The notes beneath the pieces are model-generated. The model did no database searches and was not told where the DNA came from. It saw only the letters and a program-made list of their open reading frames with translations. Below, in pieces: positions 7,836 to 21,077 of a stretch of DNA of 40,859 nt; position 1 is the stretch's first letter, and each line of letters starts with the position of its first letter. Source of the stretch: Acidobacteriota bacterium. Lineage in GTDB: Bacteria; Acidobacteriota; Thermoanaerobaculia; Multivoradales; J023. Location: positions 1 through 40,859 of the forward strand of contig JBCCLG010000002.1 of NCBI GenBank assembly GCA_039027015.1. Reading direction: 5' to 3'. Made by a program: the position numbers and the translations under genes.

Positions 7836-8795
7836 TCAGGCTACGGATTCGTCCCGCCAGCGGCGGTGCCCCCACCCGTATTGGTCGGGATCGCGCCGGA
7901 TGACCTCCTCGAGGTAGCCGTGGAGGCGGTCCAGGATGGCGCGCACGTCGTCCTTTTTCTTACCGGTGGCCGGATGCTCGATCAGCGGCGAGGTCTCGAG
8001 CACAAAGCGCATCGGGCCGACCCGCCGGCATGAGGCAAAGCAGAGCGGCGTGCGGGTCACCAGGTGCAGCATGGCCGCCGTGGTGTGGGTGGAGGCCGGC
8101 CGGCCGAAGAACGGCGCGCTCACGCCGCCGGTGTGGGCGTGCTGATCCATCAGCAGAGCCAGAATCTCGCCGCTCTCCAGCACGCTCAAGAAGCGCCGCG
8201 GATCGGCGGCGTATTTGGGGATCGGCCGAAACCGATAGCGCCCCTTGCGCTTGTGGAGCAGGGCGTCGACCCGCGGATTGTTCATCTCCCGGGTGATCCC
8301 CGCCACAGGCTTCCAGCGCGACAGGCGGTGGGCGGCGATCTCCCAATTGCCGAAGTGCCCGGAGGCCATGATCAGGCCGCGGCTCGGATCCTCCAGGACC
8401 TCGAGCACGTCGGGCGCGATCTCGAGCCGGCACAGCTCGTCGGCGCGGTCGCTTTCGAGCACCGCCGACGACTTCAGGGACTCGATGATCACCTGGCCGA
8501 AATGCTGGGCCGAGAGTCGCGAGAGCCGCCGCGCCGCCCGGCGGTCGGTTTCGACTCCGGCCGCCAGGATGTTCTCGACGGCGACCCGGCGACGCCGGCC
8601 GTCGAGGGCCCACCAAACCGTCGCCAGGCCGCGGGCCGCGGAGCACGCGCCGGCGGGCGGCAGAGCGTCGACCCCGGCCAGCACGCCGCGCAGCAGGAGG
8701 TATTCGAGCAGGTGCCGGGTCCGGCCGCCCGGGCGCCTGGGCGAAGCTTCCCGGGCCGCCGACTCCGGCGCGGCGCCCCGGGGAGGGGCGGTCAC
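7836..8795 (-). CDS. LpxL/HtrB-family (lipid A biosynthesis) acyltransferase
   Basis: SGHFGNWEI (the H-x4-[DE] acyltransferase motif as seen in LpxL) and C-terminal PDQYGWGHRRWR (compare PEQYLWxHRRWK). The GTG start forms a GTGA overlap with the ACP stop. Confidence 0.85.
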   Translation of the reverse strand: MTAPPRGAAPESAAREASPRRPGGRTRHLLEYLLLRGVLAGVDALPPAGACSAARGLATVWWALDGRRRRVAVENILAAGVETDRRAARRLSRLSAQHFGQVIIESLKSSAVLESDRADELCRLEIAPDVLEVLEDPSRGLIMASGHFGNWEIAAHRLSRWKPVAGITREMNNPRVDALLHKRKGRYRFRPIPKYAADPRRFLSVLESGEILALLMDQHAHTGGVSAPFFGRPASTHTTAAMLHLVTRTPLCFASCRRVGPMRFVLETSPLIEHPATGKKKDDVRAILDRLHGYLEEVIRRDPDQYGWGHRRWRDESVA

Positions 8796-9058
8796 GCTTT
8801 CTGGCGCTCCACCAGCAGATCCGCGAACTCGCCGAGGGTGCGCAGATCGATCACCTCGGACGCCTCGAGGGGCACGCCGAACTCCTGATCGACGTCGTAG
8901 AGCAGATCGAGGATGCTGAGCGAGTCGATGCCGATCTCCTCGAAGGTGGTCTCGCGCGTGATGGAGCTCCAGTCGTACTCCTCGGTCGAGCTTTCCTCGA
9001 GCAGGGCGCGCATACGCGCCATGATCTGGTCGTTGCCGCCGTCGCTGCTGGTGCTCAT
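8792..9058 (-). CDS. Acyl carrier protein
   Basis: 88 aa. GIDSLSILDL contains the DSL phosphopantetheine attachment motif. GGAGAG lies upstream, and the gene starts 4 nt after the KAS stop. Confidence 0.85.
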   Translation of the reverse strand: MSTSSDGGNDQIMARMRALLEESSTEEYDWSSITRETTFEEIGIDSLSILDLLYDVDQEFGVPLEASEVIDLRTLGEFADLLVERQKA

Positions 9059-9062
9059 CTCG

Positions 9063-10307
9063 TCACTCTCCGTCGGGGCCCCGGACGATCAGCACACCGT
9101 TGCCGCCGCCGAAGCCGAAGCTGTTTTTCATCGCCCAGGGCGAGTGTATCTCGCGGGACTCGGCGCCCACCAGATCGATGCCGCCGCACGCCGGGTCGGG
9201 GCGCTCGAGGTTGAGATTGGGGGGCAGGGTGCGGTGCTCGAGGCTGAGCAGGGTGGTGATGGTCTCGAGGGCCCCAGAGGCCCCCAGGGTGTGGCCGAAA
9301 TAGCTCTTGTGGGCGCACACCGGCACGCGGGAGGCGGCGTCTCCCAGGACCTCGCGAATCGATCGGCTCTCGCATTCGTCGTTGGCCTCGGTGGCCGTGC
9401 CGGGGGCGTTGACGACCGCCAGATCCGACGGCTCCACGGCGGCCTCCTCGAGGGCCTGGCGCATGGCCCGGGCCTGCCCCGCGGCGCTCGGGCTGGTGCG
9501 GTGCTTGGCGTCCGAGGACTCGCCGTAGCCCGCGATCTCGCCGCGGATCCGGGCGCCGCGGCGCTCCGCCACGTCCCGGGCCTCGAGCACCAGGGCGCCG
9601 GCGCCCTCGCCGAGCACGCAGCCGGCGCGATCGGCGTCGAAGGGGCGGCACGCGGTCTCGGGATCGGGCAGGGTGGAAAGCACCCCGAGGTTGTTCCACA
9701 CGCCGTAGAAAAAGGGGTCGAAAAATCCCTCGGCGCCGCCGCACAGAACGGTGTCGGCATAGCCGTCGCGGATCATGCGCGCCGCCGCGCCGATCGCGTT
9801 GGTGGCCGAGGTGCAGGCCGAGACCACCATGTAGTTGGTCCCGACGAGCCGATATTGCAGCGAGAGCCCCGAGGAGATGGCGTTGTACATGCACTTCGGC
9901 ACGGTGGTCGGCCGCAGACCGCGCACGCCGCGCTTGGCGAAGGCGGTGAACGCCGTGTGGTGACTCTCGGCGGAGCCCACGCCGCTGCCGAAAATCACCG
10001 CCACGTCCTGGGGCTCGTAGGGCGGCTCGCCGTCGATCAGCCCCGACTGACGCAGGGCGCTGTCGCCGGCGATCATCGCCAGGTCGAGGGCGCGGTCGAT
10101 CGACCGACGGCCCATGGCGCTGAGCCGGCTCGAGACCTCTTCCGAATCGACCTCGGCGCCGATCGACACGCGGTAGCCGGTGGTGTCCAAAAGAGAGATT
10201 TCGCCGATCCCGCCGCGCCCGGCCATCAGGCGCTCCCACACGGTCTCCTCCTCGAGCCCGATGGCGCTCGCCATGCCGAGGCCCGTTACCGCCACGCGTC
10301 TTTTCAT
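9063..10307 (-). CDS. Beta-ketoacyl-ACP synthase II-like (FabF family) with a non-canonical triad
   Basis: SACTSATNAIG (active-site Cys), KSYFGHTLGASG (second His) and NSFGFGGGN are present. The position of the first catalytic His reads VNAPGTAT (Pro, codon CCC at 9404-9402). Confidence 0.9.
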   Translation of the reverse strand: MKRRVAVTGLGMASAIGLEEETVWERLMAGRGGIGEISLLDTTGYRVSIGAEVDSEEVSSRLSAMGRRSIDRALDLAMIAGDSALRQSGLIDGEPPYEPQDVAVIFGSGVGSAESHHTAFTAFAKRGVRGLRPTTVPKCMYNAISSGLSLQYRLVGTNYMVVSACTSATNAIGAAARMIRDGYADTVLCGGAEGFFDPFFYGVWNNLGVLSTLPDPETACRPFDADRAGCVLGEGAGALVLEARDVAERRGARIRGEIAGYGESSDAKHRTSPSAAGQARAMRQALEEAAVEPSDLAVVNAPGTATEANDECESRSIREVLGDAASRVPVCAHKSYFGHTLGASGALETITTLLSLEHRTLPPNLNLERPDPACGGIDLVGAESREIHSPWAMKNSFGFGGGNGVLIVRGPDGE

Positions 10308-10346
10308 GTCATAAATCTTTCTTGCGATCGATTCCGGCCTTCCGGG

Positions 10347-11195
10347 CTACCCGTGCATGAAGAGGCCCCCATCCACGTGCAGCACCTGGCCGGTCATATA
10401 GGACGACTCGTCGGACAGCAGAAACGCGACCGCCTTCGCCACCTCCGCCGGATCGCCGAGGCGGCCGGCGGGAATGGCCAGCCGCTTGCGGTTGTCCTCG
10501 GACAGCGCGGCGGTCATCTCCGTTTCGATATACCCCGGGGAGACCGCGTTGCAGCGGATTCCGAAGCGCGCCGCCTCGAGCGCGAGGCTCCGCGTCAGGC
10601 TCACCAGCCCCGCCTTCGAGGCCGCGTAGTCGGCGCCCATCATGCGTCCCGGGCCGTGGGCGGCGAGCGACGCCATGTTGACGATCGAGCCGCGCCGCGC
10701 GCGCCGCATGGGGCCGCTGTAGGCTTCCTGGGCGGCGCAAAAGGCCGCCTCCAGGTTGAGCGCCTGGGTGGCGCGCCAGCCCTCGAGATCGAGGCCGCGG
10801 AACGCCTTGGCGCGCCCGCCCCCGGCGTTGTTCACCAGGCCATCGAGCCGGCCGCAGCGCGCCACCGTTTGGCGCACCAGCTCGCGGGCGGCCTCCGGGT
10901 CGGCGAGGTCCGCGGCCAAGGCCACCGCGCGCCGCGGATGAATCTCGGCACACGCCTCCTCGACCTTGGCCAGATCGCGGCCCTGAACGCCCACCGTGGC
11001 GCCCCGCGCGACCAGCAGCTCGGCGATCGCGCGGCCGATGCCGCGGGTCGAGCCGGTGACCAGAAAAACTCGATCGCGAAAGACCTCGCCGGAGCGCTCG
11101 GATCCCGCGTCCGCGAGACTCTCCGGGGCTTCGGGATTCGAGGCGGACGGCGAAGGCGGGGTTTGGCTCTGACTTTGAGGGGGAGCGTCATGCAT
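10347..11195 (-). CDS. SDR-family 3-oxoacyl-ACP reductase-like protein with a low-complexity N-terminal extension
   Basis: VTGSTRGIGRAIA (TGxxxGIG), NNAG, YAASKAG (YxxxK). The ATG at 11195 (MHDAPPQ...) avoids overlap with the upstream kinase gene. The track's 11333 start would overlap it by 59 nt. Confidence 0.85.
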   Translation of the reverse strand: MHDAPPQSQSQTPPSPSASNPEAPESLADAGSERSGEVFRDRVFLVTGSTRGIGRAIAELLVARGATVGVQGRDLAKVEEACAEIHPRRAVALAADLADPEAARELVRQTVARCGRLDGLVNNAGGGRAKAFRGLDLEGWRATQALNLEAAFCAAQEAYSGPMRRARRGSIVNMASLAAHGPGRMMGADYAASKAGLVSLTRSLALEAARFGIRCNAVSPGYIETEMTAALSEDNRKRLAIPAGRLGDPAEVAKAVAFLLSDESSYMTGQVLHVDGGLFMHG

Positions 11196-11234
11196 CGGGC
11201 GGTTCCTCAGGGCTCCTCGCGGCTCCTCACGGGG

Positions 11235-11256
11235 CGCGGCGGCGGCGGCGGCGGCG
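11235..11256. repeat. (CGG/GCG)n trinucleotide run, about 7 units
   Basis: gcggcggcggcggcggcggcg read directly from the sequence. It lies in the 79-nt gap between the kinase stop (11275) and the SDR start (11195). Confidence 0.85.
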
Positions 11257-11274
11257 ATTTTACCAGCCGCTCGA

Positions 11275-12735
11275 TCAGGCGGCGACGAGGGGCAGACGCA
11301 CGGTGAAAACCGTGCGCCCCGGCTCCGATTCAAAGTCGATCTGGCCGCGGTGCTGCAGCACGATGCGCTGGGCGATATCGAGCCCCAGGCCCGTTCCTTC
11401 GCCCACGCCCTTGGAGGTGACGAAGGGCTCGAAGAGGTGATCGCGCACCTCCTCGGGAATGCCCGCCCCGTCGTCGATGATGCGGATAAAGGCGGAGCAG
11501 GAGTCGTGCTCGGTCTCGATCGCGATCAGGCCGCCCTCGTCCAGGGCGTCGATCGCGTTGTCGATCAGGTTGGTCCACACCTGGTTGATATCGCTGGGAA
11601 AGACCGGCACCGGGGGCAGATCGGCGGCGTAGCGCTTCTCGACGCGCACCGACTTTTTACGCAGCGGATAGCCCAGCATGGTCAGCGTTTCGTCGAGCCC
11701 GAGGTGCACGTCCGAGGGGGTCTTCTCCGGGGTTTGGTCCATGTGGGAGTACGACTTGACCGACTGCACCAGGGTGCTGATGCGCTGCGCGGCCGTTCTC
11801 ACCTCCGAGAGCAGCTGGGAGGCCTCCAGGCCGCCGGCCACCCACTCGGCGGCGGCGCGGACCGCGTCGTGCGGAATCCCGGCGCAGGCCGCCCGCAGAT
11901 CGTCCGCGTCGAGACCCGCGTCCACAAAAGCCTCGGCGAGCAGAAAACCGTCTTCGGCGCCGCTCTCCTCCAGCCAGTCGGCCAGCTCGTCCTCCCGCTC
12001 TCCGCGCTCGATGGGGGAAAGCGCGGGCGCAGGGGCTTTCTCCTCACCCGGGGCCGCAGCGCCCGACGCCGCCGAGCGCAGGTCCACCAGGCGGCCCACC
12101 GCGTCCGCATCGAGGCCGAGCCGGACCAGGTCGACGATGCGCCCGTTGGAGCGAGCGAGGCCGTCGCTCAGATTCGAAGCCGCGCGCGCCACCGCGGCCG
12201 CCGGGTTGTTCAGCTCGTGGGCCAGTCCCGCGGAGAGCTTACCGAGGGCCATCATTTTCTCCCGCTGCTGCTCGAGCCGAGTGCCCTCGCGCACGCGGTC
12301 GGACATCAGGGCCACCAGCCGGTAGCCCAGCTCGGGAATCTTGTGCAGCACATCCGCGAAATGGCGGCGATCGATGCGCAGGGCGCGGGTCGGCCCCAGG
12401 GCCAGGGCTTTGCCGCGCCAGGTCTCCATGCGCGAGTAGGGAAGCAGGCCGATGACGCCACCCCAGCGGTCGCTGGTCACCCGCGTGGTCTGACCCATCA
12501 GCTCGAAGAGCAGCTGAACCCGGCCCGAGAGCACCACGAACATGGCGTCGGCCACCTGGCCCTCCCGCCACAGCACTTCGCCGTCCTCGAGATCCAGGCA
12601 CTCGGCGTAGTCGAGCACCCACTCCAGCTGATCGGCCTCGAGGTCGCCGAAGATATCGACGCTGGAAAGGTCCTCCGCGCACAGTCGCATGCTGCTGATG
12701 CCGCCCTCGGGGGCGTCGGCCGCGTCCGGGCTCAT
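11275..12735 (-). CDS. Cyclic-nucleotide-binding-domain sensor histidine kinase (cytoplasmic)
   Basis: ATG at 12735 with GGAGG upstream and an ATGA overlap with the preceding gene. The N-terminal cNMP-binding-like beta-barrel reads IFGDLEADQLEWV...VVLSGRV. HisKA is SAGLAHELNNP. The HATPase N/G boxes are NLIDNAIDA, DDGAGIP and GTGLGL. Confidence 0.9.
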   Translation of the reverse strand: MSPDAADAPEGGISSMRLCAEDLSSVDIFGDLEADQLEWVLDYAECLDLEDGEVLWREGQVADAMFVVLSGRVQLLFELMGQTTRVTSDRWGGVIGLLPYSRMETWRGKALALGPTRALRIDRRHFADVLHKIPELGYRLVALMSDRVREGTRLEQQREKMMALGKLSAGLAHELNNPAAAVARAASNLSDGLARSNGRIVDLVRLGLDADAVGRLVDLRSAASGAAAPGEEKAPAPALSPIERGEREDELADWLEESGAEDGFLLAEAFVDAGLDADDLRAACAGIPHDAVRAAAEWVAGGLEASQLLSEVRTAAQRISTLVQSVKSYSHMDQTPEKTPSDVHLGLDETLTMLGYPLRKKSVRVEKRYAADLPPVPVFPSDINQVWTNLIDNAIDALDEGGLIAIETEHDSCSAFIRIIDDGAGIPEEVRDHLFEPFVTSKGVGEGTGLGLDIAQRIVLQHRGQIDFESEPGRTVFTVRLPLVAA

Positions 12736-14861
12736 GACGGATCCTCCTTCTCGGTCTCGGGTCCTCCGAGCTTCTTCTCGTGGAGATAGCACCAGCCCCA
12801 ATCCTCTCCCGGCTCGAGGGACTTCATGACCGCGTGGCCGGTGGCGTGGAAATGGGCCGTGGCGTGGCGGTTCGGGGAGCTGTCGCAGCAGCCCACGTAG
12901 CCGCACACCAGGCAGACGCGCAGATGCACCCAGCGATCTCCGGTCTCGAGGCAGTCCTGACAGCCGGCGGAGGCGGGCAGCACCGGCTCGAGGCCCTCGG
13001 TGTGCTCGCATCCCTCGCCGCTCAGGGAAACCGGCGCTTCGGGATCGAAGGACACGGCCGGCGCCGCGTCCTGGAGCAGCGAACCGGCGGCCGCCGCGGA
13101 GTCGAGGCGGCCGCGCTCCGCGAGGCGCCGCACGCTCGCCACGTGCTCCACCACCGCTTCCTCGCTGGCGCCGTAGGTCAACATCACCTCCGAGCACAGG
13201 CGCAGGGTCGACTCGAGATCGTCGGCTGCCACGCTGTCGGCCCCGGCCTCTGCGAGGGTCTTGGCGTCGCGGGTCGAGCGGGTGCGCACCAAAATTTTGA
13301 GCTCCGGCGCCAGGCCCCGAGCCACCGCGGCCACGGCCTCGGCCTTGGCAGGCTCGTCGTCGGCCACCACCATCAGCCGCGCCCGGCCGATGCCGGCGTG
13401 GCGCAGGGTCTCCGCGCTGCCGTTGTCGCCGCGCAGAACGGCCATGCCGAGCTTCTCCGCTTCATCGGCGCCAAAAGGGCTTAGGGTGACGATCAGAAAC
13501 GGGATCTCCTGGCTGGCCAAAGCCTTGGTCAGCCGCTGCGCCGAGGCCGCGTAGCCGGCGACGATCACGTGATCGCGAAGTTCGGCCAGAGCCTCCTCAT
13601 CCACCGGCGGCAGCTCTTCGGGATCGAGCGCCTCCTGGCGGCCTTCGACCCGGTCGAGGCGCGCCCCGAGCTTGGCGAGCAGGGGCGTTACGACCATCAG
13701 CACCACCGTGGCGGCGACGAAAATCTGTGAGCCCCCCGCCTCCATGCCGAAGGGCGTTAAGCCCAGGTCGCGGCCGGCGCGCTCGAGAACGAAGGAGAAC
13801 TCCCCCACCTGCGCCAGCATCAGGCCGCTGCCGAGGGCCGCGGGCAGAGGCTGCCGCAGGGCCAGGGCCGCTCCCGTGGTGGTGAGGATCTTGAGCGCCA
13901 GCACCGCCAGCAGGGTGAGCAGCACCGGCATCGGGTTGGCGAAAAGATAAGACAGGTCGAGCAGCATGCCCACGGACACGAAGAAGACGGCGCTGAAGAG
14001 AATCTGCAGCGGCAGAATCTCGGTGAGCGCGTGGTGGCTGAACCGGCTCTCGCTCACCACCAGCCCGGCCAGAAAAGCCCCCAGGGAAACGCTCACCCCG
14101 GCCAGGCTCGAGAGATAGGCCGTGCCGAGGCAGATCGCGATGATGGTCAGCAGGAAGACCTCCTGAGAGCAGGCGAGCGCCACCTTCTCGAGCAGGGGCG
14201 GCATGATCCGGCGCGCGGCGAGCAGCACCACGGCGATCAGCAGGCCCGCGCTGCCGAGGGCCTTGGCCACGTCGGCCGCGTCGCCGCCGGTGCCCGCCAG
14301 CGTCGGCAGCAGCAGCACCATGGCGATGATGCCGAGGTCCTGAAAGATGAGAAAGGCCACCGACAGACGGCCCCTGGGCGTGGCGGTGGCGGCCTCGTCG
14401 GCCAGCAGCTTGACGACGATGGCGGTCGAGCTGAGCGCGATCAAGAAGCCCGTGAACACGCCGCTCTGCCAGGAGGCGCCGGTGGCGACCATGGCGCCGG
14501 TGGTGATCACCGTCACCAGGGTCACCTGCAGACCGCCGCCGCCGAAAATCAGCCCCTTGATGCGGCTCAGCTTCTCGAGGCTGAACTCGATGCCGATCGT
14601 GAAGAGCAGCAGCATCACGCCCAGCTCGGCGGCCTGATCGATGAGGGATTGATTGGTGATCAGGCCGAGGGCGTTGGGCCCCAGCAGCACCCCGGCCGCC
14701 AGGAATCCGACGATCGGCACCAGGCCCAGGCGCGAGCACAGATAGGCGATGGCGGCGCCCGCCACCAGCAGGCAGACCGCCTCGAAGAGAAAGGGCGGCG
14801 CGGCGGCGGCGAGCAGACTCTCGATTCCGGCCAAGGCTGGGCCCAGGAGGGTGGCTGTCAT
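12732..14861 (-). CDS. CPA2 (Kef-type) cation:proton antiporter with an RCK/TrkA-N-like domain and a C-terminal UBP-type zinc finger
   Basis: ATG at 14861 (MTATLLGP...) shares 1 nt with the upstream stop (TGATG). The multi-TM Na/H-exchanger-like region includes LGVMLLLFTIGIEFS and VFLIFQDLGIIAM. The RCK-like segment is HVIVAGYAAS...LMVVADDE. The C-terminus CQDCLETGDRWVHLRVCLVCGYVGCCDSSPNRHATAHFHATGH is a ZnF-UBP signature. Confidence 0.9.
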   Translation of the reverse strand: MTATLLGPALAGIESLLAAAAPPFLFEAVCLLVAGAAIAYLCSRLGLVPIVGFLAAGVLLGPNALGLITNQSLIDQAAELGVMLLLFTIGIEFSLEKLSRIKGLIFGGGGLQVTLVTVITTGAMVATGASWQSGVFTGFLIALSSTAIVVKLLADEAATATPRGRLSVAFLIFQDLGIIAMVLLLPTLAGTGGDAADVAKALGSAGLLIAVVLLAARRIMPPLLEKVALACSQEVFLLTIIAICLGTAYLSSLAGVSVSLGAFLAGLVVSESRFSHHALTEILPLQILFSAVFFVSVGMLLDLSYLFANPMPVLLTLLAVLALKILTTTGAALALRQPLPAALGSGLMLAQVGEFSFVLERAGRDLGLTPFGMEAGGSQIFVAATVVLMVVTPLLAKLGARLDRVEGRQEALDPEELPPVDEEALAELRDHVIVAGYAASAQRLTKALASQEIPFLIVTLSPFGADEAEKLGMAVLRGDNGSAETLRHAGIGRARLMVVADDEPAKAEAVAAVARGLAPELKILVRTRSTRDAKTLAEAGADSVAADDLESTLRLCSEVMLTYGASEEAVVEHVASVRRLAERGRLDSAAAAGSLLQDAAPAVSFDPEAPVSLSGEGCEHTEGLEPVLPASAGCQDCLETGDRWVHLRVCLVCGYVGCCDSSPNRHATAHFHATGHAVMKSLEPGEDWGWCYLHEKKLGGPETEKEDPS

Positions 14862-16513
14862 CAAAGCGACGCCAGGTGTTGATGCATGAAGTGCACGGCC
14901 ACCGAGCCTTCGCCCACCGCGGAGGCCACGCGCTTCACCGAGCGGTGGCGCACGTCGCCGGCGGCGAAAACGCCGGGCAGGCTCGTCTCGAGGAGAAAGG
15001 GAGATCGCTCGAGGGGCCACTCGCCCAGCTGCTCCGACGCGAGGTCCGGACCGGTGAGCACGAAGCCTCGCCCCTCGCGGGCCACGGCGGAGTCGAGCCA
15101 CTCGGTTCTCGGGCGAGCTCCGATAAACACAAAGACCGCGCTGGCGGCCTCCCGCCGCTCCTCGCCGTTCTGCCGCAGGGTCAGCGCCTCCAGACGCTCT
15201 TCGCCGTGGCATTGGGCGATCTCGGCGTGCAGGCGCACCTCGATGCGGGCGTGCTCCTCGATGCGCTCTACCAGGTAGTTCGACATCTTGGCGGCCAGGG
15301 AGCCGCCGCGCACCAAAACGACCACGCGCTCGGCCCAGTCGGCGAAATGCATGGCCGCCTGCCCGGCCGAGTTGCCGGCGCCGACCACGAAAACCGTTTC
15401 GCCGCGGAAATTCATCGCCTCGGTGAGGCTGGCGCCGTAGTACACGCCCCGGCCGGCCAGGGCCTCGGCGCCGGGGGCCGGCAGCTTGCGCCACGCTACG
15501 CCGCCAGAGAGCATCACGATATGGCTGGTGATCTCGCTGCCGTCGGCGAGCTTGAGGCGCCGGTAGCGCCCCTCGGCCTCGAGAGACCGCACCTCCACCG
15601 GGGTCAGAACCTCCACCCCGAAGCGCCGGGCCTGGGTGAGGGCCCGGTGGGCCAGGTCGGCGCCCGAGAGCCCCGAGGGAAAGCCCAGGTAATTCTCGAT
15701 CCGGCTGCTGGTTCCCGCCTGGCCGCCCGGCGCCTCGCGCTCGAGCAGCACCGTCTTGAGCCCCTCGGAGGCGGCGTAGACCGCCGCCGCCAGGCCCGCG
15801 GGACCGCCGCCGACGATCGCGACGTCATAGAAATCTTCGTGCGCCCGGGTCTGCAGGCCCACGGCCTCGGCCACCTCGGCCAGGCCGGGGTTGAACAGCT
15901 TCTCGCCGCTCTCGAGCACCACCATCGGCAGGTGCTCTTCGCTATCGCCGGGCGTAGACTCCGCCAGCTCGCGGGCCTCCTCTGAGGACTCGACCTGCAG
16001 ATATTGATAGGGCACGAGATTGCGCGCGAGGAAATCGCGAATCTCGTGACAGGCCGGCGACCAGCGCGATCCCACGATGCGAAGACCGCCGTAGCCGGGC
16101 TTAAAGCCCAGGCGCCAGTCGCCGAGCAGGTCATCGAGCACCGGGTAGAGAGCCTCCTCCGGAGGATCCCAGGGCTTGAGGAGGTAGTAGTCGAGCCGCG
16201 AGTCGTTGATCGCGCCGATCGCAGCCTCGGTGTCGGCATACGCCGTGAGCAGCACGCGCTTGGCCCCCGGGTGGACCTCCCGCGCCTGCGCCAGAAGCTC
16301 GACCCCCGACATCTCGGGCATGCGGTGATCCGAGAGAACGAGCGCCACCGCCTCGCCGCGCTCCCGCAGCTCCTCCAGGGTCTCGAGCGCCGCCGCGCCC
16401 GAATCCGCGCGCAAAATCGAGTACTCCTTGCCGTATCGGCGCCGCAGGTCCCGAGCGACCGCGCGCAGCACCTGGGGATCGTCATCGACGGTCAGAAGAA
16501 TCGGTCGGTTCAT
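14861..16513 (-). CDS. Fused response-regulator receiver, glutaredoxin-like and thioredoxin-reductase-like flavoprotein
   Basis: REC is ILLTVDDDP...LVLSDHRMPEMSG...KPW. The Grx-like segment is IVGSRWSPACHEIRDFLARNLVPYQYLQV. The FAD and NAD(P) Rossmann motifs are VAIVGGGPAGLAAA and VFVVGAGNSAGQAA, followed by GVFAAGDV. No CxxC is present. Confidence 0.9.
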   Translation of the reverse strand: MNRPILLTVDDDPQVLRAVARDLRRRYGKEYSILRADSGAAALETLEELRERGEAVALVLSDHRMPEMSGVELLAQAREVHPGAKRVLLTAYADTEAAIGAINDSRLDYYLLKPWDPPEEALYPVLDDLLGDWRLGFKPGYGGLRIVGSRWSPACHEIRDFLARNLVPYQYLQVESSEEARELAESTPGDSEEHLPMVVLESGEKLFNPGLAEVAEAVGLQTRAHEDFYDVAIVGGGPAGLAAAVYAASEGLKTVLLEREAPGGQAGTSSRIENYLGFPSGLSGADLAHRALTQARRFGVEVLTPVEVRSLEAEGRYRRLKLADGSEITSHIVMLSGGVAWRKLPAPGAEALAGRGVYYGASLTEAMNFRGETVFVVGAGNSAGQAAMHFADWAERVVVLVRGGSLAAKMSNYLVERIEEHARIEVRLHAEIAQCHGEERLEALTLRQNGEERREAASAVFVFIGARPRTEWLDSAVAREGRGFVLTGPDLASEQLGEWPLERSPFLLETSLPGVFAAGDVRHRSVKRVASAVGEGSVAVHFMHQHLASL

Positions 16514-16729
16514 GAGGGGGGACGCTCACTCTCGAAGTCGGCGCTTGATGGGTGGGCTTGCGGGATCGGCCACCCCAACAGCCGGGCGGCCCGCTGAATT
16601 CCCGAGGTCTGATAAGTATCGGACGCCGAGTCTATCCGCCCCTGTGCCAGAGGCTCGAGGGCCGCCAGAGGACGCGGGAGCGAGGCTTCAACCAAACTCT
16701 TTGACGACGGCATCCAGCAGGAGAAGACG

Positions 16730-17575
16730 ATGGTCCCCAATGCGCAAGTCCCCAGCACACGAGGTCTTCTGCGAGCGTCGGCCTGCTGCCTCGCCCTGAT
16801 CCTCGGCCTCTCAAGCGGCGCCTCGCCCGCTTTGCGACAGAGCTCCTTTCACAGGAGCCTTCACTGGCAGGCGAAGGATCGGTCCGTGGAGGGCCTGTTC
16901 ACCTTTTGGACGAACAAGACGGGGTCCGTAACGCGGGTGCTGGTGGCGGGCGCGGAGGGACGGAATCTGCTGCTCACGGAGGTCATCGATGCGGGCCGCG
17001 GAACGAGCACCTCGTGGCTCCGGGACGATGCGTCCGGATGGTCGGCGCGATTTGAGATCCGATACCCGGCGGGAGCGTCGAGCCTGAGGGAGTTTTTTCG
17101 CGCGGCCCATGCGGCAAAGACCGTGAACGCAAGGCTGAGCTGGGACGGCGGAGCAAGCTCCGAGCTTGAGCAAACCCCACAGCACACTTCAAAACTCCTG
17201 GCCCAGAACTTCGTTCAGGGTTTGGCGGAGCGCGGCGAACTCAGGACCGTCAGCGCCGCAATTCCTGAAGAGCTAGTGCCCGCGCTTTTCTTTCTCAAAG
17301 ATCACTTAAGCCCCGAGTCCTCCCTAGACGCCGACGATCCAAACGCCTCGGCGGCGTACGCCGTGAGAGCAGTGATCGAAGTCCTGACTCAAACAGCTGC
17401 TCGCCAGAGCGAAGAAGAGGACGATCGCGTCAGGCTCGAGACGCCGTGGGTCCTAAAGGTCGGCGCGATGCACAACGGGCACCTCCTAAAGGTCCCGGCA
17501 TTTGTCGAGCTCGCGGGTCGATTTCAGTCGATCGAAGGCGTCAGCCCGCTTTCGGACCTCGATCTCGTGCCTTGA
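16730..17575 (+). CDS. Hypothetical secreted protein
   Basis: ORF track, 281 aa. The N-terminus is signal-peptide-like (RGLLRASACCLALILGLSSGASPA). No family was recognised. The region looks somewhat lower in GC than its neighbours. Confidence 0.5.
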   Translation: MVPNAQVPSTRGLLRASACCLALILGLSSGASPALRQSSFHRSLHWQAKDRSVEGLFTFWTNKTGSVTRVLVAGAEGRNLLLTEVIDAGRGTSTSWLRDDASGWSARFEIRYPAGASSLREFFRAAHAAKTVNARLSWDGGASSELEQTPQHTSKLLAQNFVQGLAERGELRTVSAAIPEELVPALFFLKDHLSPESSLDADDPNASAAYAVRAVIEVLTQTAARQSEEEDDRVRLETPWVLKVGAMHNGHLLKVPAFVELAGRFQSIEGVSPLSDLDLVP

Positions 17576-17603
17576 AAGTCTTGACCGCGAGAGACCAACC
17601 GTC

Positions 17604-18842
17604 TCAGGTCTGAAGCTGATGAGAAATCAGGGAGCTCGCTCGAGCGATGAGCTCGCCCTCGTCCCACTGGCGCCGGGTTGCGGCGTGACGAACGCGGCCT
17701 TCTGCATCGAGAACGTAGGCCTCGATTTGATGCCGGTTGACCACGCTTGACACGTAGTTGACGCCGAGGTCGAAGTGGGCGCGCAGTCGCTCGAAGCCTT
17801 CGGGGAGGCGCAGCATCCTGTGGTTTTCCGCGGGCCGGGCTCCCCAGATCTCGGCGTAGCGCTTGAGCCTCGGCGGCAGGTCGTAGCCGGGGTCGTAGGT
17901 GATAGCGGCGGTCCTGATGGCGCCGCTGAGGCCCTGCTCCTCGAGCAGGCGCTGGGCGCGGCCCAGGCGAGTGACGGTCATGGCGCATTTGGTGGGGTTG
18001 TCGCAGCGGGTATAGAAGAAAACCACCAGGCTCGGCCGACCGATCAAAAAGTCGCCAAAGCGCACCGCCGCGCCGTCTTGATCCTGGAATTCGAGGTCCG
18101 CCAGGCTCGACGGATCGGCGGCGCCCTCGATTTCGCGGGCGCTCGAGGCGGGGGCGGGCTTGGATGCGGCGCAGCAGGATTCGGCCTCGGCGCTTTCGAG
18201 AACGTCGATCGTCCTGTCGAGGGCCGCTGACCACGAAGCCTCGGGACCGACTTCGCGCCGCAGCTCGCGCAGCCTCGGCAGGGCGACGCGGGCCCTCGGG
18301 CCCAGCCATTCGAGGGTCTTGAGAAGCTCGGCAACCGCGGTCGTGCGCTCACCCGCCACGCCGTAGCCGCCGTAGGCCTCGAGGGTGACCGAGTCGTCGC
18401 GCGAGCGAATATAGAGAAGGGCGCTCAGCAGCGGCTGCGTCCACTCGGCGCGCGGAGCGGAGCGGCGCAGGACCGCGGCGGCGGCGGCGGTGAGGTAGGC
18501 GTCGTGGCTGCTCTCCAGCTCCTCCAGCACGAAGGGCAGAGCCTCGGGCGTCAGCTCATCGAGGGCGAGGAGCAGCCAGCCGCGCATGCGGGTCACGGCG
18601 GCCGCGCCTCGGCCGTCGTATACCGGGTGGCTCTCAAGCAGCAGGGCCTCGATCTGCCCTGCGCGGCCCGGCACTGCGCGGCCCGGCACTGCGCGGCCCG
18701 GCACGGCGCGGCTGTCTCGCAGCCAGGCGATCAGCTCCTCCTCGCTGCGGATGGCAGGCGCGGGCGGCCGCTTGACGCGCTCCGGAGTCGCGGAGTCTTC
18801 AGAAGACGCGGAGCTCTCGGGAGACGAGCTGCAGCAGCTCAC
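17604..18842 (-). CDS. HEAT-like N-terminal domain fused to an SCO1/SenC-like thioredoxin-fold domain
   Basis: The C-terminal part of the 714-aa track ORF. GTG at 18842 forms a GTGA overlap with the upstream HEAT gene stop, with GAGG upstream. The SCO-like core is LVVFFYTRCDNPTKC ... NRHQIEAYVLDAEGRV. The start is uncertain. Confidence 0.65.
   Translation of the reverse strand: MSCCSSSPESSASSEDSATPERVKRPPAPAIRSEEELIAWLRDSRAVPGRAVPGRAVPGRAGQIEALLLESHPVYDGRGAAAVTRMRGWLLLALDELTPEALPFVLEELESSHDAYLTAAAAAVLRRSAPRAEWTQPLLSALLYIRSRDDSVTLEAYGGYGVAGERTTAVAELLKTLEWLGPRARVALPRLRELRREVGPEASWSAALDRTIDVLESAEAESCCAASKPAPASSAREIEGAADPSSLADLEFQDQDGAAVRFGDFLIGRPSLVVFFYTRCDNPTKCAMTVTRLGRAQRLLEEQGLSGAIRTAAITYDPGYDLPPRLKRYAEIWGARPAENHRMLRLPEGFERLRAHFDLGVNYVSSVVNRHQIEAYVLDAEGRVRHAATRRQWDEGELIARASSLISHQLQT
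18661..18712. repeat. 15-bp tandem repeat, 3 copies plus a 7-nt partial copy, in-frame inside the CDS
   Basis: The units are gcgcggcccggcact, gcgcggcccggcact, gcgcggcccggcacg, then gcgcggc. They encode RAVPG three times in the 17604-18842 protein. Confidence 0.9.
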
Positions 18843-19717
18843 CCATCGAGCCTCAGGAGCGCCTCGGCGTGACGCACGATCGCCGACGGGCCGTCGTCGC
18901 CCGAGGCGCTGGCGATCCCCAGCCCCTCGCCTTCGGTGACCTCGCGGGCCACCGCGCGAAAGCGCTTGGGATCGAGGGTGGTAAGCGCCGAGGCGGCCAG
19001 CTGGCGGACCTTGGAGTCTTCCGCGGGATCGGCGAAGAGGGCCGCGAAGCGATCTACCGACTCCGGATCGGCGCTCAGCAGGAGGAGCGCCTCGACGCGG
19101 GCGCGCGGGCTGGGCGGATCGTCGGCGATCTGCCGGGCGATCCCCTGAACCTCCGAGTGAATATCGTTGGCGAGAAGCGCCAGGGCGTCGGCGGGGTCGA
19201 CCAGCGCCCGGGCGGGATCGCGCAGGCCCGCCAGCAGGCGCTCCTGGGAGAAACGGTCCTTCTCCTGGCACAGAATCTCGAGGGCCAGCAGGCGAAGCTC
19301 GGCGTCGTCCGACTCGACCTCGGAACGCGCGGCGTCGAGAAAGGCGGGGCGCCACGCGTCGGCGGTCGGGCTTGCGAACGCCGACTGCCGCAGCAGCTGA
19401 AGGCCCGCCTTTTTGATCTCCGCCGACTCCTGGGGATCCTGAACCCTCTCGAGAGCCGCCAGGTGGGCGGTCTCGGGATCGGCGGACCGGGTCAGCAGGC
19501 CGGCGAGCGCGGCGGCGCGGGCGCGCGGATCGGCCTCGCGATTCGCCAGCAGCGCCCGGCGGGACTCCTCCAGGCGCGAGGCTCCCTCTGCGGGCAGGGC
19601 GGCCGCGATCCCCAACTCCCCCTCCTCGGGATCCTGCCCCCGCGCACGCTCGCTGGCGAGGGCGCGGGCCTGGGCAATCTCGTGCTCGATCTGTCGTCTG
19701 TAGTCTCGAACGCTCAT
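18839..19717 (-). CDS. HEAT/armadillo-like repeat protein
   Basis: ORF track, 292 aa, with GAGGAGAG upstream of the ATG. The protein is Ala/Leu/Asp/Arg-rich with about 30-aa helical repeats (DPRARAAALAGLL, DAELRLLALEIL, SPRARVEALLLL, SKVRQLAASAL). Confidence 0.7.
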   Translation of the reverse strand: MSVRDYRRQIEHEIAQARALASERARGQDPEEGELGIAAALPAEGASRLEESRRALLANREADPRARAAALAGLLTRSADPETAHLAALERVQDPQESAEIKKAGLQLLRQSAFASPTADAWRPAFLDAARSEVESDDAELRLLALEILCQEKDRFSQERLLAGLRDPARALVDPADALALLANDIHSEVQGIARQIADDPPSPRARVEALLLLSADPESVDRFAALFADPAEDSKVRQLAASALTTLDPKRFRAVAREVTEGEGLGIASASGDDGPSAIVRHAEALLRLDG

Positions 19718-19744
19718 CGTGTTCTCTCCTCTCGGCCCGAGCCT

Positions 19745-20986
19745 TCAACGTTCCTGGTACGGCACGGTGTCATAGCCGTAGCCGAGCCGACCGCCAGGGT
19801 CCACGCGTCCCTGGAAGTCGATCATGCCGCGCACGGTCGGCGCGTCGCCCGGAGCCGCGGCCAGGGGCGAAGAGGCCAAAGAGCCCCCGGGGGCGAAATC
19901 CGGGCGCGGAGGCGTGGTGACGCCGTTCCAGGGCCAGAGCGTGTCCTCGAGGCGGCGGCCGTCGATGTCCTGCCCGCGGTAGCTGGCGGGATCGTCGGGA
20001 TCGAAGCGGCCGTGAACCCACTGCCACAGCGCCCACAGGCGGTCGACGTTGGCGTGGAGCATGAAGAAGAGCGGGTCCTTGGCGGCGGTGGGGATCGACG
20101 AGATCCAGCCTTCGAAGGAGACGTGGGCGAGGCCGTGAGGATCACCTTCCATCTGCTGGCGAAAGCCCGCGAAAGCGTCGTCGAGCCCCAGGGTCTCCGC
20201 CTGGCCCATGGGCATCACGCCGCGATCGGGCCAGGCCGCTCGGCTGGTGGTGGTGTCGAAGTGGGCGCGGCGACGGATGCCCAGGGTGTTGTCGGTCGTC
20301 CAGGTGGAGAGAGGGTGCCCCGGAATGAAGTCCACCAGGCCGCCGTCGCCGGCCACGCCCATGAAGTCGCGGCGGAAGACGTTGGGCGCCGGCTCGTCCC
20401 AGCGCCAGTAGTGCAGCGAAACGCTCGGGTCGATGGCCTGAAGCTCGCGCTCGAGATCGAGCAGATAGGAGCGGTGCCAGGGCAGAAAGTGCGGTCCGCG
20501 GTGGGCCTGAGGGTTCGAGGCCGAAACGTGCATCGAGCGAAAGTCCGAGAAACGACCGAAACCGCGGTCGTTCAGCGCACCGAAGGCGGCGAGGAAACGA
20601 TCGCGCTCGGCGGGCAGCAGCAGATTCGCGTTCTTGCGCACGCGAACCATCAGCAGGATCTCGGCCAGCGCAACGCCGGCGCCGTCGCTGACGGCCAGGC
20701 GACAGTCGCGCTCCTCGATGCTCGGGTGGCCCCATTTGCCGCCAAGCCAAAAACTCACCCACTCCCCGCCCGCCGGAACATGCAGCTCCAGGGGTTCCCG
20801 AGGGGGCGCGTCGGGCGTAGGGTAGAAGACCGCTTCACCGCCGCCCTCGAGGGCGGCCTCGCTGCTCAACACCAGCTCCACAGGGCCGGCGACGTCGGTT
20901 TGGCGGATGCGGCACGGGGAGGGTGCATAGGCGACAAATCGCCGGGCTTCCCCCAGGGAGCCGTGGATCTCGATTTCGATGGACAT
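19745..20986 (-). CDS. Tyrosinase / type-3 copper polyphenol oxidase with an extra N-terminal domain of about 115 aa
   Basis: CuA is HRGPHFLPWHRSYLLDLE and CuB is HGLAHV...FFMLHANVDRLWALWQ. The ATG at 20986 is preceded by GGGAGGA. No signal or Tat motif was seen. Confidence 0.9.
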   Translation of the reverse strand: MSIEIEIHGSLGEARRFVAYAPSPCRIRQTDVAGPVELVLSSEAALEGGGEAVFYPTPDAPPREPLELHVPAGGEWVSFWLGGKWGHPSIEERDCRLAVSDGAGVALAEILLMVRVRKNANLLLPAERDRFLAAFGALNDRGFGRFSDFRSMHVSASNPQAHRGPHFLPWHRSYLLDLERELQAIDPSVSLHYWRWDEPAPNVFRRDFMGVAGDGGLVDFIPGHPLSTWTTDNTLGIRRRAHFDTTTSRAAWPDRGVMPMGQAETLGLDDAFAGFRQQMEGDPHGLAHVSFEGWISSIPTAAKDPLFFMLHANVDRLWALWQWVHGRFDPDDPASYRGQDIDGRRLEDTLWPWNGVTTPPRPDFAPGGSLASSPLAAAPGDAPTVRGMIDFQGRVDPGGRLGYGYDTVPYQER

Positions 20987-21077
20987 ACCGTCCTCCCTCA
21001 CTCGCTCCGGATAGATTTGGCCGAATCATCTCATCGAGGCCTGAGAGTGATCAAGCTAAGACGGTAGCGTCCGCCTA

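Follow-up and report, generated by a model that had tools for sequence, protein, structure and literature searches.

What does a histidine kinase control when its gene is linked, through that of an ion antiporter, to the gene of a response regulator in which Pfam finds no DNA-binding domain? The question is posed by positions 11275-16513 of a 40,859-nucleotide stretch of DNA from an Acidobacteriota bacterium (GenBank assembly GCA_039027015.1, contig JBCCLG010000002.1; G+C content about 70%), which is referred to here as the window. Three open reading frames (ORFs) on the minus strand, denoted g1, g2 and g3, fill this segment, and an earlier sequence-only reading had described them as genes coupled by start/stop overlaps, with the same coordinates and junctions that we find:

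14861-16513, minus strand: g1, 550 amino acids (aa), a response regulator with a receiver (REC) domain, a cysteine-less thioredoxin (Trx) fold and a cysteine-less flavoprotein resembling thioredoxin reductase (TrxR)
12732-14861, minus strand: g2, 709 aa, a KefC-type K+/H+ antiporter of the CPA2 family with an RCK domain and a C-terminal zinc finger of the zf-UBP family
11275-12735, minus strand: g3, 486 aa, a soluble histidine kinase with a sensor resembling cyclic nucleoside monophosphate (cNMP)-binding domains, a DHp domain with a helical insert, and a CA domain
14859-14863, minus strand: TGATG, stop/start overlap of g1 and g2, read directly from the DNA
12732-12735, minus strand: ATGA, start/stop overlap of g2 and g3, read directly from the DNA

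The three genes most likely form one operon that encodes a predicted cytoplasmic signalling module, namely, a two-component pair together with an effector. The conserved core of the module is the kinase and the regulator, with or without zf-UBP, and the Kef antiporter is one of several effectors that bear this finger.

A scan for g1-type regulators in one genome per GTDB species yielded at least 597 confirmed loci, and neighbours were detected by tblastn with the window's own domains within 8 kb on each side of the regulator. In 74 of 80 species-level loci, spread over about ten phyla (Bacteroidota, Cyanobacteriota, Chloroflexota, Acidobacteriota, Planctomycetota, Actinomycetota and Gemmatimonadota among them), the kinase adjoins the REC-flavoprotein, on either side of it and nearly always on the same strand. 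The CA domain of the kinase was detected in these 74 loci and the insert-bearing DHp domain in 73 of the 80 (L001-L080); two of the six regulator loci that lack a kinase are cut off by the end of the contig. When all neighbours were clustered all against all, the regulator and the kinase were the sole widely shared genes, and zf-UBP was the next recurrent one. The receiver and the parts of the kinase are located as follows:

16148-16504, minus strand: REC domain of g1, residues 4-122 (Pfam Response_reg)
12331-12669, minus strand: cNMP-binding-like beta-barrel of g3, residues 23-135 (Pfam PF00027)
12121-12336, minus strand: long helix leading from the sensor into DHp helix 1 (AlphaFold helix 134-205)
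12217-12219, minus strand: phospho-acceptor His173 in AHELNNP (aligned with the H-box of ZraS)
11872-12120, minus strand: helical insert, about 83 residues long (206-288), in the tip of the DHp hairpin (alignment gap and AlphaFold)
11287-11871, minus strand: DHp helix 2 (residues 289-334) and CA domain (339-483), with the N, G1, F and G2 boxes

In g1, Response_reg is matched over residues 7-118 with 57 bits (cut-off 30.2), and 25 homologues share D10, D11, the phospho-acceptor D62, T90 and K113 without exception; the nearest receivers are those of the RpfG/NosR type (115 bits, NCBIfam; PDB 2RJN among the matches). In g3, HATPase_c is matched at 84 bits, and the AHELNNP, NLIDNAIDA, DDGAGIP and GEGTGLGL boxes are invariant in 35 kinase homologues, including H173, E174, N176, N177 and P178 around the phospho-acceptor and N389/N393, D421/G423/G425, F435/F438 and G445-G451 in the CA domain. 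Judging by these residues, both the receiver and the kinase look catalytically competent. Taken together, the adjacency of the two genes and the invariance of their catalytic residues make it very likely that the REC-flavoprotein is the cognate phosphotransfer partner of the kinase.

Of the eight Pfam domains that the sequence-only reading had expected in the three proteins, seven are confirmed (PF00072, PF07992, PF00999, PF02254, PF02148, PF00027 and PF02518), whereas PF00512 (HisKA) stays below its threshold of 26.9 bits, with a match of 22.6 bits that spans profile positions 2-30 of 66, because the DHp domain of g3 is split by the insert. This insert corresponds to a gap of about 80-110 residues in alignments with ZraS and CckA. 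AlphaFold models it as four short helices with a pLDDT of about 76-96 per ten-residue block, reaching 93-96 from residue 241, and it contains the conserved motif L-S-x-L-E-R-x-E-R-E-D-E-L-A-D-W-L. A Foldseek search with the g3 model found no such insert in solved kinases; specific to this family, it could be a docking surface. Some cyanobacterial loci carry two insert-bearing kinases in tandem (L007:12684-15122 and L015:9777-13321), and the pair in L007 lies about 3 kb from the regulator and does not adjoin it.

The zf-UBP domain was found in 19 of the 80 regulator loci, in seven phyla, and all 19 copies lie directly upstream of the regulator, between regulator and kinase, or directly downstream of the pair, despite the 8 kb searched on each side. 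A search that started from zf-UBP led back to the same flavoprotein: the top neighbour of free zf-UBP genes is a protein of about 550 aa composed of cNMP_binding, a Trx fold and Pyr_redox_2 (15 loci), encoded about 40 nt upstream of zf-UBP on the same strand, and in five or six further loci the REC form and the kinase stand beside the finger. Metagenome contigs are short; of the 31 metagenome zf-UBP loci flanked on each side by 1.5 kb or more, eight contain the TrxR-like module, mostly in the cNMP-fused form. The cNMP-fused proteins, which NCBI annotation names 'cyclic nucleotide-binding domain-containing thioredoxin-disulfide reductase', are 48-62% identical to g1 and share its hallmarks, that is, the absence of CxxC, a Trx fold devoid of cysteine, the GNSAGQAA, MSxYL and VKRVASAVGEG motifs, and the same short C-terminus. 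Because this form matches g1 in its hallmarks and has the same zf-UBP neighbour, the triad of sensor, flavoprotein and finger exists in one- and two-component versions. The sequence-only reading had named TrxR-like, cNMP-binding and zf-UBP proteins as frequent neighbours and had seen the same domain set reshuffled across the three polypeptides of the window; the 19 of 80 loci and the rank of the cNMP-fused protein among zf-UBP neighbours bear out the former, and the two versions of the triad the latter. Clusters of kinase, regulator and zf-UBP are also present in cultured bacteria, namely, Chitinophaga pinensis (L045), Dyadobacter frigoris (L048), Chryseobacterium soldanellicola (L071) and Streptomyces species (L070, L074). 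This pattern of gene neighbourhood argues that the flavoprotein and zf-UBP are probably functional partners, a conclusion we hold with good, although lesser, confidence than that on the kinase and its regulator.

Downstream of the receiver, g1 consists of two parts:

15860-16087, minus strand: Trx/glutaredoxin (Grx)-like fold of g1, residues 143-218 (motif WSPACH; family consensus RWSAxxH)
14864-15838, minus strand: pair of TrxR-like FAD and NAD(P)H domains in g1, residues 226-550 (GGGPAG, GAGNSAG and the GD motif retained)

The first description of g1 as a fusion of REC, Grx-like and TrxR-like segments stands as far as the receiver and the two folds are concerned, but the cysteines that the names imply are absent from both enzyme-like parts. 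The Grx-like part gives a sub-threshold NCBIfam match to mycoredoxin (residues 146-218, E = 2.7e-8; TIGR02200 34.1 against 89.5), and in the AlphaFold model of g1 (mean pLDDT 79.6 for the whole chain) it forms a Trx-like arrangement of beta-alpha or beta-alpha-beta units, with REC on one side and the TrxR core on the other. Its invariant residues among the 25 homologues are R150, W151, S152, H156 and P196; Cys155, which is part of S-P-A-C in the window, is not conserved, the family reads S-A-x-x-H, and the fold thus has no conserved cysteine and no CxxC or CxxS site of a glutaredoxin. In the TrxR-like part (Pyr_redox_2, 124 bits, residues 229-536), all of the same homologues keep the GGGPAG motif for FAD, the GAGNSAG motif for NAD(P)H and the GD motif, and YYGASLTEAM (15413-15442) occupies the position of the TrxR CxxC. 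The absence of CxxC rests on the alignment to the Staphylococcus aureus TrxR 4GCM (157 bits), in which G-A-(S)-L-T of g1 is opposite C-A-V-C; the 25 homologues, from several phyla, have the consensus YYGAxxTEA and no CxxC. The scores of g1 are below the equivalog cut-offs for TrxR and AhpF (TIGR01292, 207.8 against 343.45; NF007614, 95.9 against 644), although in a Foldseek search with the whole chain the top match is full-length AhpF, followed by TrxRs, with target-normalised TM-scores up to 0.85. The family is strongly conserved, with a mean column identity of 73% in the 25 homologues, and the best 120 of at least 8000 scored homologues, from distant phyla, are 63-76% identical to g1. Their database names, 'thioredoxin reductase (NADPH)' (JGI) and 'FAD-dependent oxidoreductase', are misleading or uninformative.

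Given that the TrxR part lacks CxxC and the Grx part lacks a conserved cysteine, g1 should not be a disulfide reductase; with the FAD and NAD(P)H motifs kept and the redox cysteines lost, it could report or transfer reducing equivalents that come from NAD(P)H and the flavin but could not reduce disulfides alone. We therefore regard g1 as a predicted FAD/NAD(P)H flavoprotein with an output free of redox thiols. The proposal of an enzymatic or redox output in place of a transcriptional one agrees with the lack of a DNA-binding domain in g1, but thiol-disulfide chemistry by g1 alone does not survive the absence of the cysteines. At the C-terminus of g1 (14864-14893, minus strand), all 101 homologues that match the pattern H-x-[YHF]-[LMF] end exactly three residues past it (19 of the 120 do not match), the usual ending being A-[ST]-L-COOH, and the cNMP-fused forms end alike. 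A fixed, free C-terminus of the flavoprotein would suit a tail-binding domain such as zf-UBP.

The sensor of g3 was likewise only partly as first described. The kinase is soluble and carries a cNMP-like barrel (PF00027, 40.4 bits against a cut-off of 27.5), which AlphaFold models as a beta-barrel with pLDDT above 90 (mean for g3, 88), but the cyclic-nucleotide pocket is remodelled. G-x-L-P-Y-S-R-M (12424-12456) replaces the phosphate-binding cassette; compared with the canonical G-E-[LM]-A-L...R-[ST]-A, this motif is shorter and lacks the ribose-binding Glu. In the form G-x-L-P-[YF]-S-R-M it is found in the window and most relatives and is invariant in their clade (G96, L98, P99, S101 and R102 being the invariant sensor residues of g3), cyanobacterial members have FFGEIPVLT, and only two Chloroflexota members of the family alignment have the canonical cassette. 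The second-messenger input suggested by the sequence-only reading is, accordingly, conjectural. These features bear on the possibility that g1 is a genuine NADPH-thioredoxin or -glutaredoxin reductase under the command of a kinase that senses cAMP or cGMP. The JGI name of the g1 homologues would fit, as would the matches of cNMP_binding and Pyr_redox_2 above their Pfam thresholds; however, the replaced cassette without the ribose-binding Glu argues against a cAMP- or cGMP-sensing kinase, and the missing CxxC, the Trx fold without a conserved Cys and the low TIGR01292 score against a true TrxR. Furthermore, VRG stands in place of HRRxxxR, the motif for the NADPH 2'-phosphate in Escherichia coli TrxR. 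Such an enzyme is highly improbable, being contradicted by both the cysteines and the cassette.

The finger itself is, in the window, the C-terminal part of the antiporter, which has three domains:

13686-14756, minus strand: Na_H_Exchanger membrane domain of g2, residues 36-392 (Pfam, 154.5 bits)
13230-13568, minus strand: RCK/KTN (TrkA_N) domain of g2, residues 432-544 (Pfam, 60.5 bits)
12771-13013, minus strand: bacterial-type zf-UBP of g2, residues 617-697 (PF02148), following the RCK domain after a linker about 57 residues long

The Pfam matches and the KefC cryo-EM chain 8BXG, which aligns with residues 25-556 of g2 at 207 bits, uphold the original assignment of a Kef-type antiporter with an RCK domain and a UBP zinc finger. 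The scores of g2 lie below the equivalog cut-offs for KefC (NF002924, 295.8 against 752), KefB (262.3 against 804) and the CPA2 subfamily (TIGR00932, 197.8 against 238.3), and the fusion of such an antiporter with zf-UBP is common in its own right, PF02148 being present in 120 of the 120 best homologues, with or without TrkA_C. The homologues of g2 are named 'cation:proton antiporter' and those of g3 'ATP-binding protein'.

PF02148 scores 46.1 bits in g2 (cut-off 22.7), and residues 617-695 match the bacterial structure 2IDA, a structural-genomics 'hypothetical protein', at 118 bits but USP33 and HDAC6 at E of about 1e-3 only. The bacterial domain has invariant Cys and His columns, with the zinc-ligand cysteines assigned by alignment to the HDAC6 and USP domains, and further invariants of its own: W-x-H-L-R, C-C-D-S-S and EPGExW. 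Within these, the C41-C42 pair, H29 and R31 have no eukaryotic counterpart, S45 is invariant and D43 nearly so, and in the HMMER alignment a Ser-Ser stands opposite the Arg-Tyr with which HDAC6 (5G0F) holds the ubiquitin tail, so the pocket for Gly-Gly is not retained. Eukaryotic ZnF-UBP domains bind the free tail of ubiquitin, and, with a zf-UBP above the Pfam threshold, one could ask whether the finger is a sign that ubiquitin-like proteins are conjugated or deconjugated in bacteria and whether it reads a Gly-Gly C-terminus. Apart from the substituted pocket, this is contradicted by the absence of ubiquitin-like, E1, E2 and JAB genes from the window and from the recurrent neighbours, and by the absence of a C-terminal Gly-Gly from the regulator and the kinase. 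PADLOC also speaks against it, as it returned only three weak matches (E = 1e-5 to 8e-4), of Pycsar effector or cyclase models to the cNMP-like region of g3, and none to g1 or g2; on the same result, a defence system was ruled out. A ubiquitin-like system is barely conceivable and was rejected.

In an exhaustive census of 1.84 billion representative proteins, zf-UBP formed 1514 clusters (50% identity) at E up to 1e-10. Most members have 90-160 aa, free genes encoding mostly 83-110 aa, and longer members have the finger at the cytoplasmic C-terminus of membrane proteins, such as Na+/H+-exchanger-type proteins with or without RCK, an MFS transporter and an LPG_synthase_TM protein (P0487, P0465, P0443). 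In one protein (P0493), zf-UBP is at the N-terminus of a diadenylate cyclase (DAC), and DAC genes were also observed some 30 nt downstream of free zf-UBP genes, at L092:1453-2040 and in two comparable loci. Both the fusion and the adjacency connect the fingers with c-di-AMP and hence with potassium homeostasis, to which many zf-UBP-fused effectors are tied. Genes for MFS proteins, DUF5996 and DsbA-like thioredoxins repeatedly follow free zf-UBP genes (L087:3418-5010; L107:3993-4922; L091:5671-6204). Two apparent fusions were discarded: that of zf-UBP with the regulator in L061 is an over-extended ORF in another reading frame, and P0427, an RRF fragment with zf-UBP, looks like a chimera of gene calling.

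The particular residues of the bacterial finger raise another alternative, namely, that zf-UBP is a thiol/zinc redox switch and a substrate of the flavoprotein, whose lost cysteines would be supplied in trans by the Cys-Cys pair and the His that the finger has in excess of its zinc ligands, with the oxidation state of the finger gating Kef. Electrons from NAD(P)H, under the control of REC phosphorylation (or of the ligand in the cNMP form), would then set the oxidation or zinc state of the finger, and the finger, fused to Kef, MFS proteins or a diadenylate cyclase, would turn this state into ion flux. Such a protein-thiol gate would replace the glutathione-adduct gate of KefC. The invariant C41-C42, H29 and R31, which eukaryotic fingers lack, are in line with such a switch, as are the strong conservation of g1 despite its cysteine-less TrxR-like part and Trx fold and the DsbA-like thioredoxin genes after zf-UBP in four loci; Kef systems, moreover, respond to electrophile and thiol stress. 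Conversely, the zinc-binding cysteines were assigned by alignment to HDAC6 and USP domains, and all known members of this flavoenzyme superfamily carry the flavin-adjacent disulfide in their own chain. We consider the switch quite unlikely, although, if true, it would be a new relay from a flavoprotein to a zinc finger in potassium and pH homeostasis and the first function for a prokaryotic ZnF-UBP.

Is the antiporter, then, a regular partner of the pair? The linkage of the three genes recurs and goes beyond chance: the regulator, Kef-zf-UBP and the kinase are adjacent in six other loci (L165, L166, L167, L168, L169 and L059), all with unrelated flanking genes and in three different gene orders. 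The order of the window (regulator, Kef-zf-UBP, kinase) is that of the closest relatives, L165 (from an Acidobacteriota metagenome-assembled genome) and L166, and of L168 and L169, and the 4-nt ATGA overlap is found in these four as well. In L167, the genes are convergent or divergent (Kef on the plus strand, regulator on the minus strand, kinase on the plus strand), and in L059, from Gemmatimonadota, they run kinase, regulator, Kef; the latter is the sole case of Kef-RCK-zf-UBP among the 80 GTDB loci. Ten candidate contigs were common to the lists of Kef and kinase matches, and in each of the three that were checked (L167-L169) the genes are adjacent on one contig. The six recurrences in altered orders, together with Kef-zf-UBP genes that stand alone, show that the linkage is recurrent and rearranged but not obligatory. 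Thus, the tight coupling to an ion antiporter that was first proposed recurs, but Kef is not part of the core and many Kef-zf-UBP genes are on their own. In L169 (2224-3144), a gene for a TIR_2 and REC protein lies directly upstream of the regulator.

The combination of a very likely phosphotransfer pair with a probable flavoprotein-finger partnership suggests the following mechanism. A ligand would bind the remodelled cNMP-like barrel of the g3 kinase; the C-helix of the barrel appears to run into the DHp helix with His173, on which the kinase would autophosphorylate, and the phosphoryl group would pass to Asp62 in the REC domain of g1. The Trx-fold/TrxR-like FAD module would then shift its conformation or oligomeric state, perhaps integrating the occupancy by NAD(P)H, and would bind or release the zf-UBP tethered to the RCK tail of g2. 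As a result, K+ efflux and H+ uptake would change, with the phosphorylation and the flavin state of g1 gating the antiporter. The finger would be a dedicated partner of the module, a free protein of about 90 aa in most organisms and tethered through a flexible linker to a KefC-type antiporter in the lineage of the window. Since the flavoprotein is fused to inputs (REC, cNMP) and zf-UBP to effectors, this is the most economical direction of the signal. In E. coli, kefF lies upstream of kefC and overlaps it, as does kefG with kefB, and the flavoprotein regulates the antiporter; the structures of the KefC C-terminal domain with the bound flavoprotein KefF (PDB 3EYW, 3L9W) provide a precedent. The phosphotransfer, the contact between flavoprotein and zf-UBP, the direction of the signal and the effect on transport are steps that we infer. 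For the whole chain, from ligand through kinase, phosphorylated REC and flavoprotein to zf-UBP docking and K+/H+ gating, the balance of evidence is about even, and we assign the same even weight to control of Kef by the module.

Several observations weigh against this mechanism. An adjacent zf-UBP is missing from 61 of the 80 regulator loci, the 80-locus samples being the best-scoring subsets of at least 597 and at least 590 candidates and not random. Three of the eight Kef-zf-UBP loci examined have neither regulator nor kinase within 6 kb, and no natural fusion of flavoprotein and zf-UBP was seen among the 150 best zf-UBP representatives, the physical contact between the two being deduced from gene neighbourhood. 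The nucleotide motif of the RCK domain is degenerate (GYAASA in the window and GYGxAA as the consensus of 120 homologues, in place of GxGxxG), which makes the gating mode of the antiporter hard to read. Finally, the analogy with Kef is functional only because KefF is flavodoxin-like and unrelated to TrxR.

The loci without a finger, along with the frequent solitary occurrence of Kef-zf-UBP, could also mean that the two-component pair controls only a reaction catalyzed by the flavoprotein itself, such as the reduction of quinone, ferredoxin, metal or another small acceptor with NAD(P)H, and that Kef-zf-UBP is independent, makes no contact with the flavoprotein and is co-transcribed to serve against the same stress. 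CxxC-less ferredoxin-NADP+ reductases of the TrxR fold do exist (PDB 3AB1, 3LZW and 2ZBW are among the g1 matches), and g1 has retained its motifs for FAD and NAD(P)H. On the other hand, g1 is far nearer to true TrxR/AhpF (157 bits) than to these reductases (about 47-57 bits), and the enrichment of zf-UBP falls precisely at the edges of the pair, across seven phyla and several gene orders, and is also seen beside the cNMP-fused form. Accordingly, we see an independent flavoprotein activity as unlikely, though less so than the redox switch, and prefer the docking of the flavoprotein to the tethered finger.

The 3' end of g1 reads ...CTT TGA, the final A of TGA being shared with the ATG of g2; g2 ends in ...TCA TGA, with the ATG of g3 within ATGA, and a Shine-Dalgarno sequence, GAAGGAGGA, is located 8 nt upstream of this ATG. 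The overlaps define the starts and stops and, therefore, the true gene spans, 14861-16513, 12732-14861 and 11275-12735; the longer ORFs in the ORF listing are upstream over-extensions in G+C-rich DNA. A gap of 216 nt separates g1 from the divergent ORF at 16730, and about 80 nt separate g3 from a same-strand cluster. The promoter/terminator scan detected no promoter-like site and terminator-like sites at background level only, none of them between the three genes, and no Rfam element was found in 10000-18000 at E up to 0.1. The other genes of the window noted in the analysis are:

7836-11196, minus strand, downstream of g3: SDR/FabG-like reductase, beta-ketoacyl synthase (KAS), acyl carrier protein (ACP) and lipid-A-type acyltransferase
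16730-17575, plus strand: divergent ORF of 281 aa with no Pfam match
17604-21001, minus strand: a group of three, namely, a tyrosinase-domain protein, an ORF of 292 aa without annotation and a protein whose C-terminus resembles SCO1/SenC
18659-18712: near-perfect 15-nt tandem repeat (3.6 copies, 97% matches) that encodes (AVPGR)n in the SCO1-like ORF
39235-40854, minus strand: a second Kef-type antiporter paralogue with Na_H_Exchanger and TrkA_N but without zf-UBP, its N-terminus cut by the end of the window

The genes at 7836-11196 are a small lipid or aryl-polyene-like cluster, which is not kept beside the module in relatives, and the trio at 17604-21001 is possibly copper-related.

If the proposed mechanism is true, it would assign a role to the REC-'TrxR' regulators of at least 597 GTDB species, to their cNMP-fused cousins and to the bacterial zf-UBP (about 1500 clusters), and would represent a new mode of Kef-type K+/H+ gating by a phosphorylation-controlled flavoprotein that acts through a zinc-finger handle. 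The module is directly testable because cultured Bacteroidota and Streptomyces carry the cluster. A search of the accessible literature yielded no published study of its function, the partner kinase, the missing cysteines, the zf-UBP partnership or the Kef fusion.

None of the components is of a new kind: the module combines a two-component system with a CPA2 antiporter and a flavoprotein regulator. The comparison with KefF-KefC and KefG-KefB is the closest at the level of organization. Antiporter g2 is a KefC homologue, with a CPA2 membrane domain and a C-terminal RCK/KTN domain, the flavoprotein gene g1 is directly upstream of the antiporter gene and overlaps it, and regulation of Kef by a flavoprotein through the cytoplasmic C-terminus is exemplified by the solved complex of KefC and KefF. 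The differences are in the parts: KefF and KefG are flavodoxin-like FMN quinone reductases, whereas g1 is a TrxR-fold FAD protein with REC and a Trx fold, and g2 departs from KefB and KefC in its additional zf-UBP, its degenerate RCK nucleotide motif and its scores far below the equivalog cut-offs. Regulator g1 resembles TrxR and AhpF in its fold and in its motifs for FAD and NAD(P)H, and AhpF likewise has an N-terminal Trx-like domain followed by the TrxR core; unlike these enzymes, g1 lacks CxxC and a conserved cysteine in the Trx fold and has gained an N-terminal receiver. The TrxR-type ferredoxin-NADP+ reductases of Bacillus (YumC), Chlorobaculum and Thermus also combine a TrxR fold without CxxC with flavin chemistry on non-thiol partners, but their similarity to g1 is weak and they have no REC, Trx fold or zf-UBP partner.

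Among response regulators with enzymatic output, CheB, RpfG (REC-HD-GYP) and WspR/PleD (REC-GGDEF) follow the same design of a receiver attached to an enzyme fold. The combination of REC with thioredoxin reductase is included in Galperin's censuses of response regulators and has been mentioned as a known architecture in one census (PMC5847659); in contrast to what the name of this class implies, the output domain of g1 lacks the catalytic cysteines. The bacterial finger has the fold and most zinc ligands of the eukaryotic ZnF-UBP/BUZ domains (USP5, HDAC6, USP33), but with Ser-Ser for Arg-Tyr and invariants of its own, and it is free or fused to transporters or a diadenylate cyclase. The one-component cNMP-Trx-fold-TrxR-like proteins have the same cysteine-less module, the same motifs and the same zf-UBP neighbour, with the sensor fused directly to the flavoprotein, whereas in the window it is connected through a kinase and a receiver. 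The module of kinase and REC-flavoprotein is, thus, widespread and functionally unstudied, and in the window its zf-UBP partner is built into an ion transporter.

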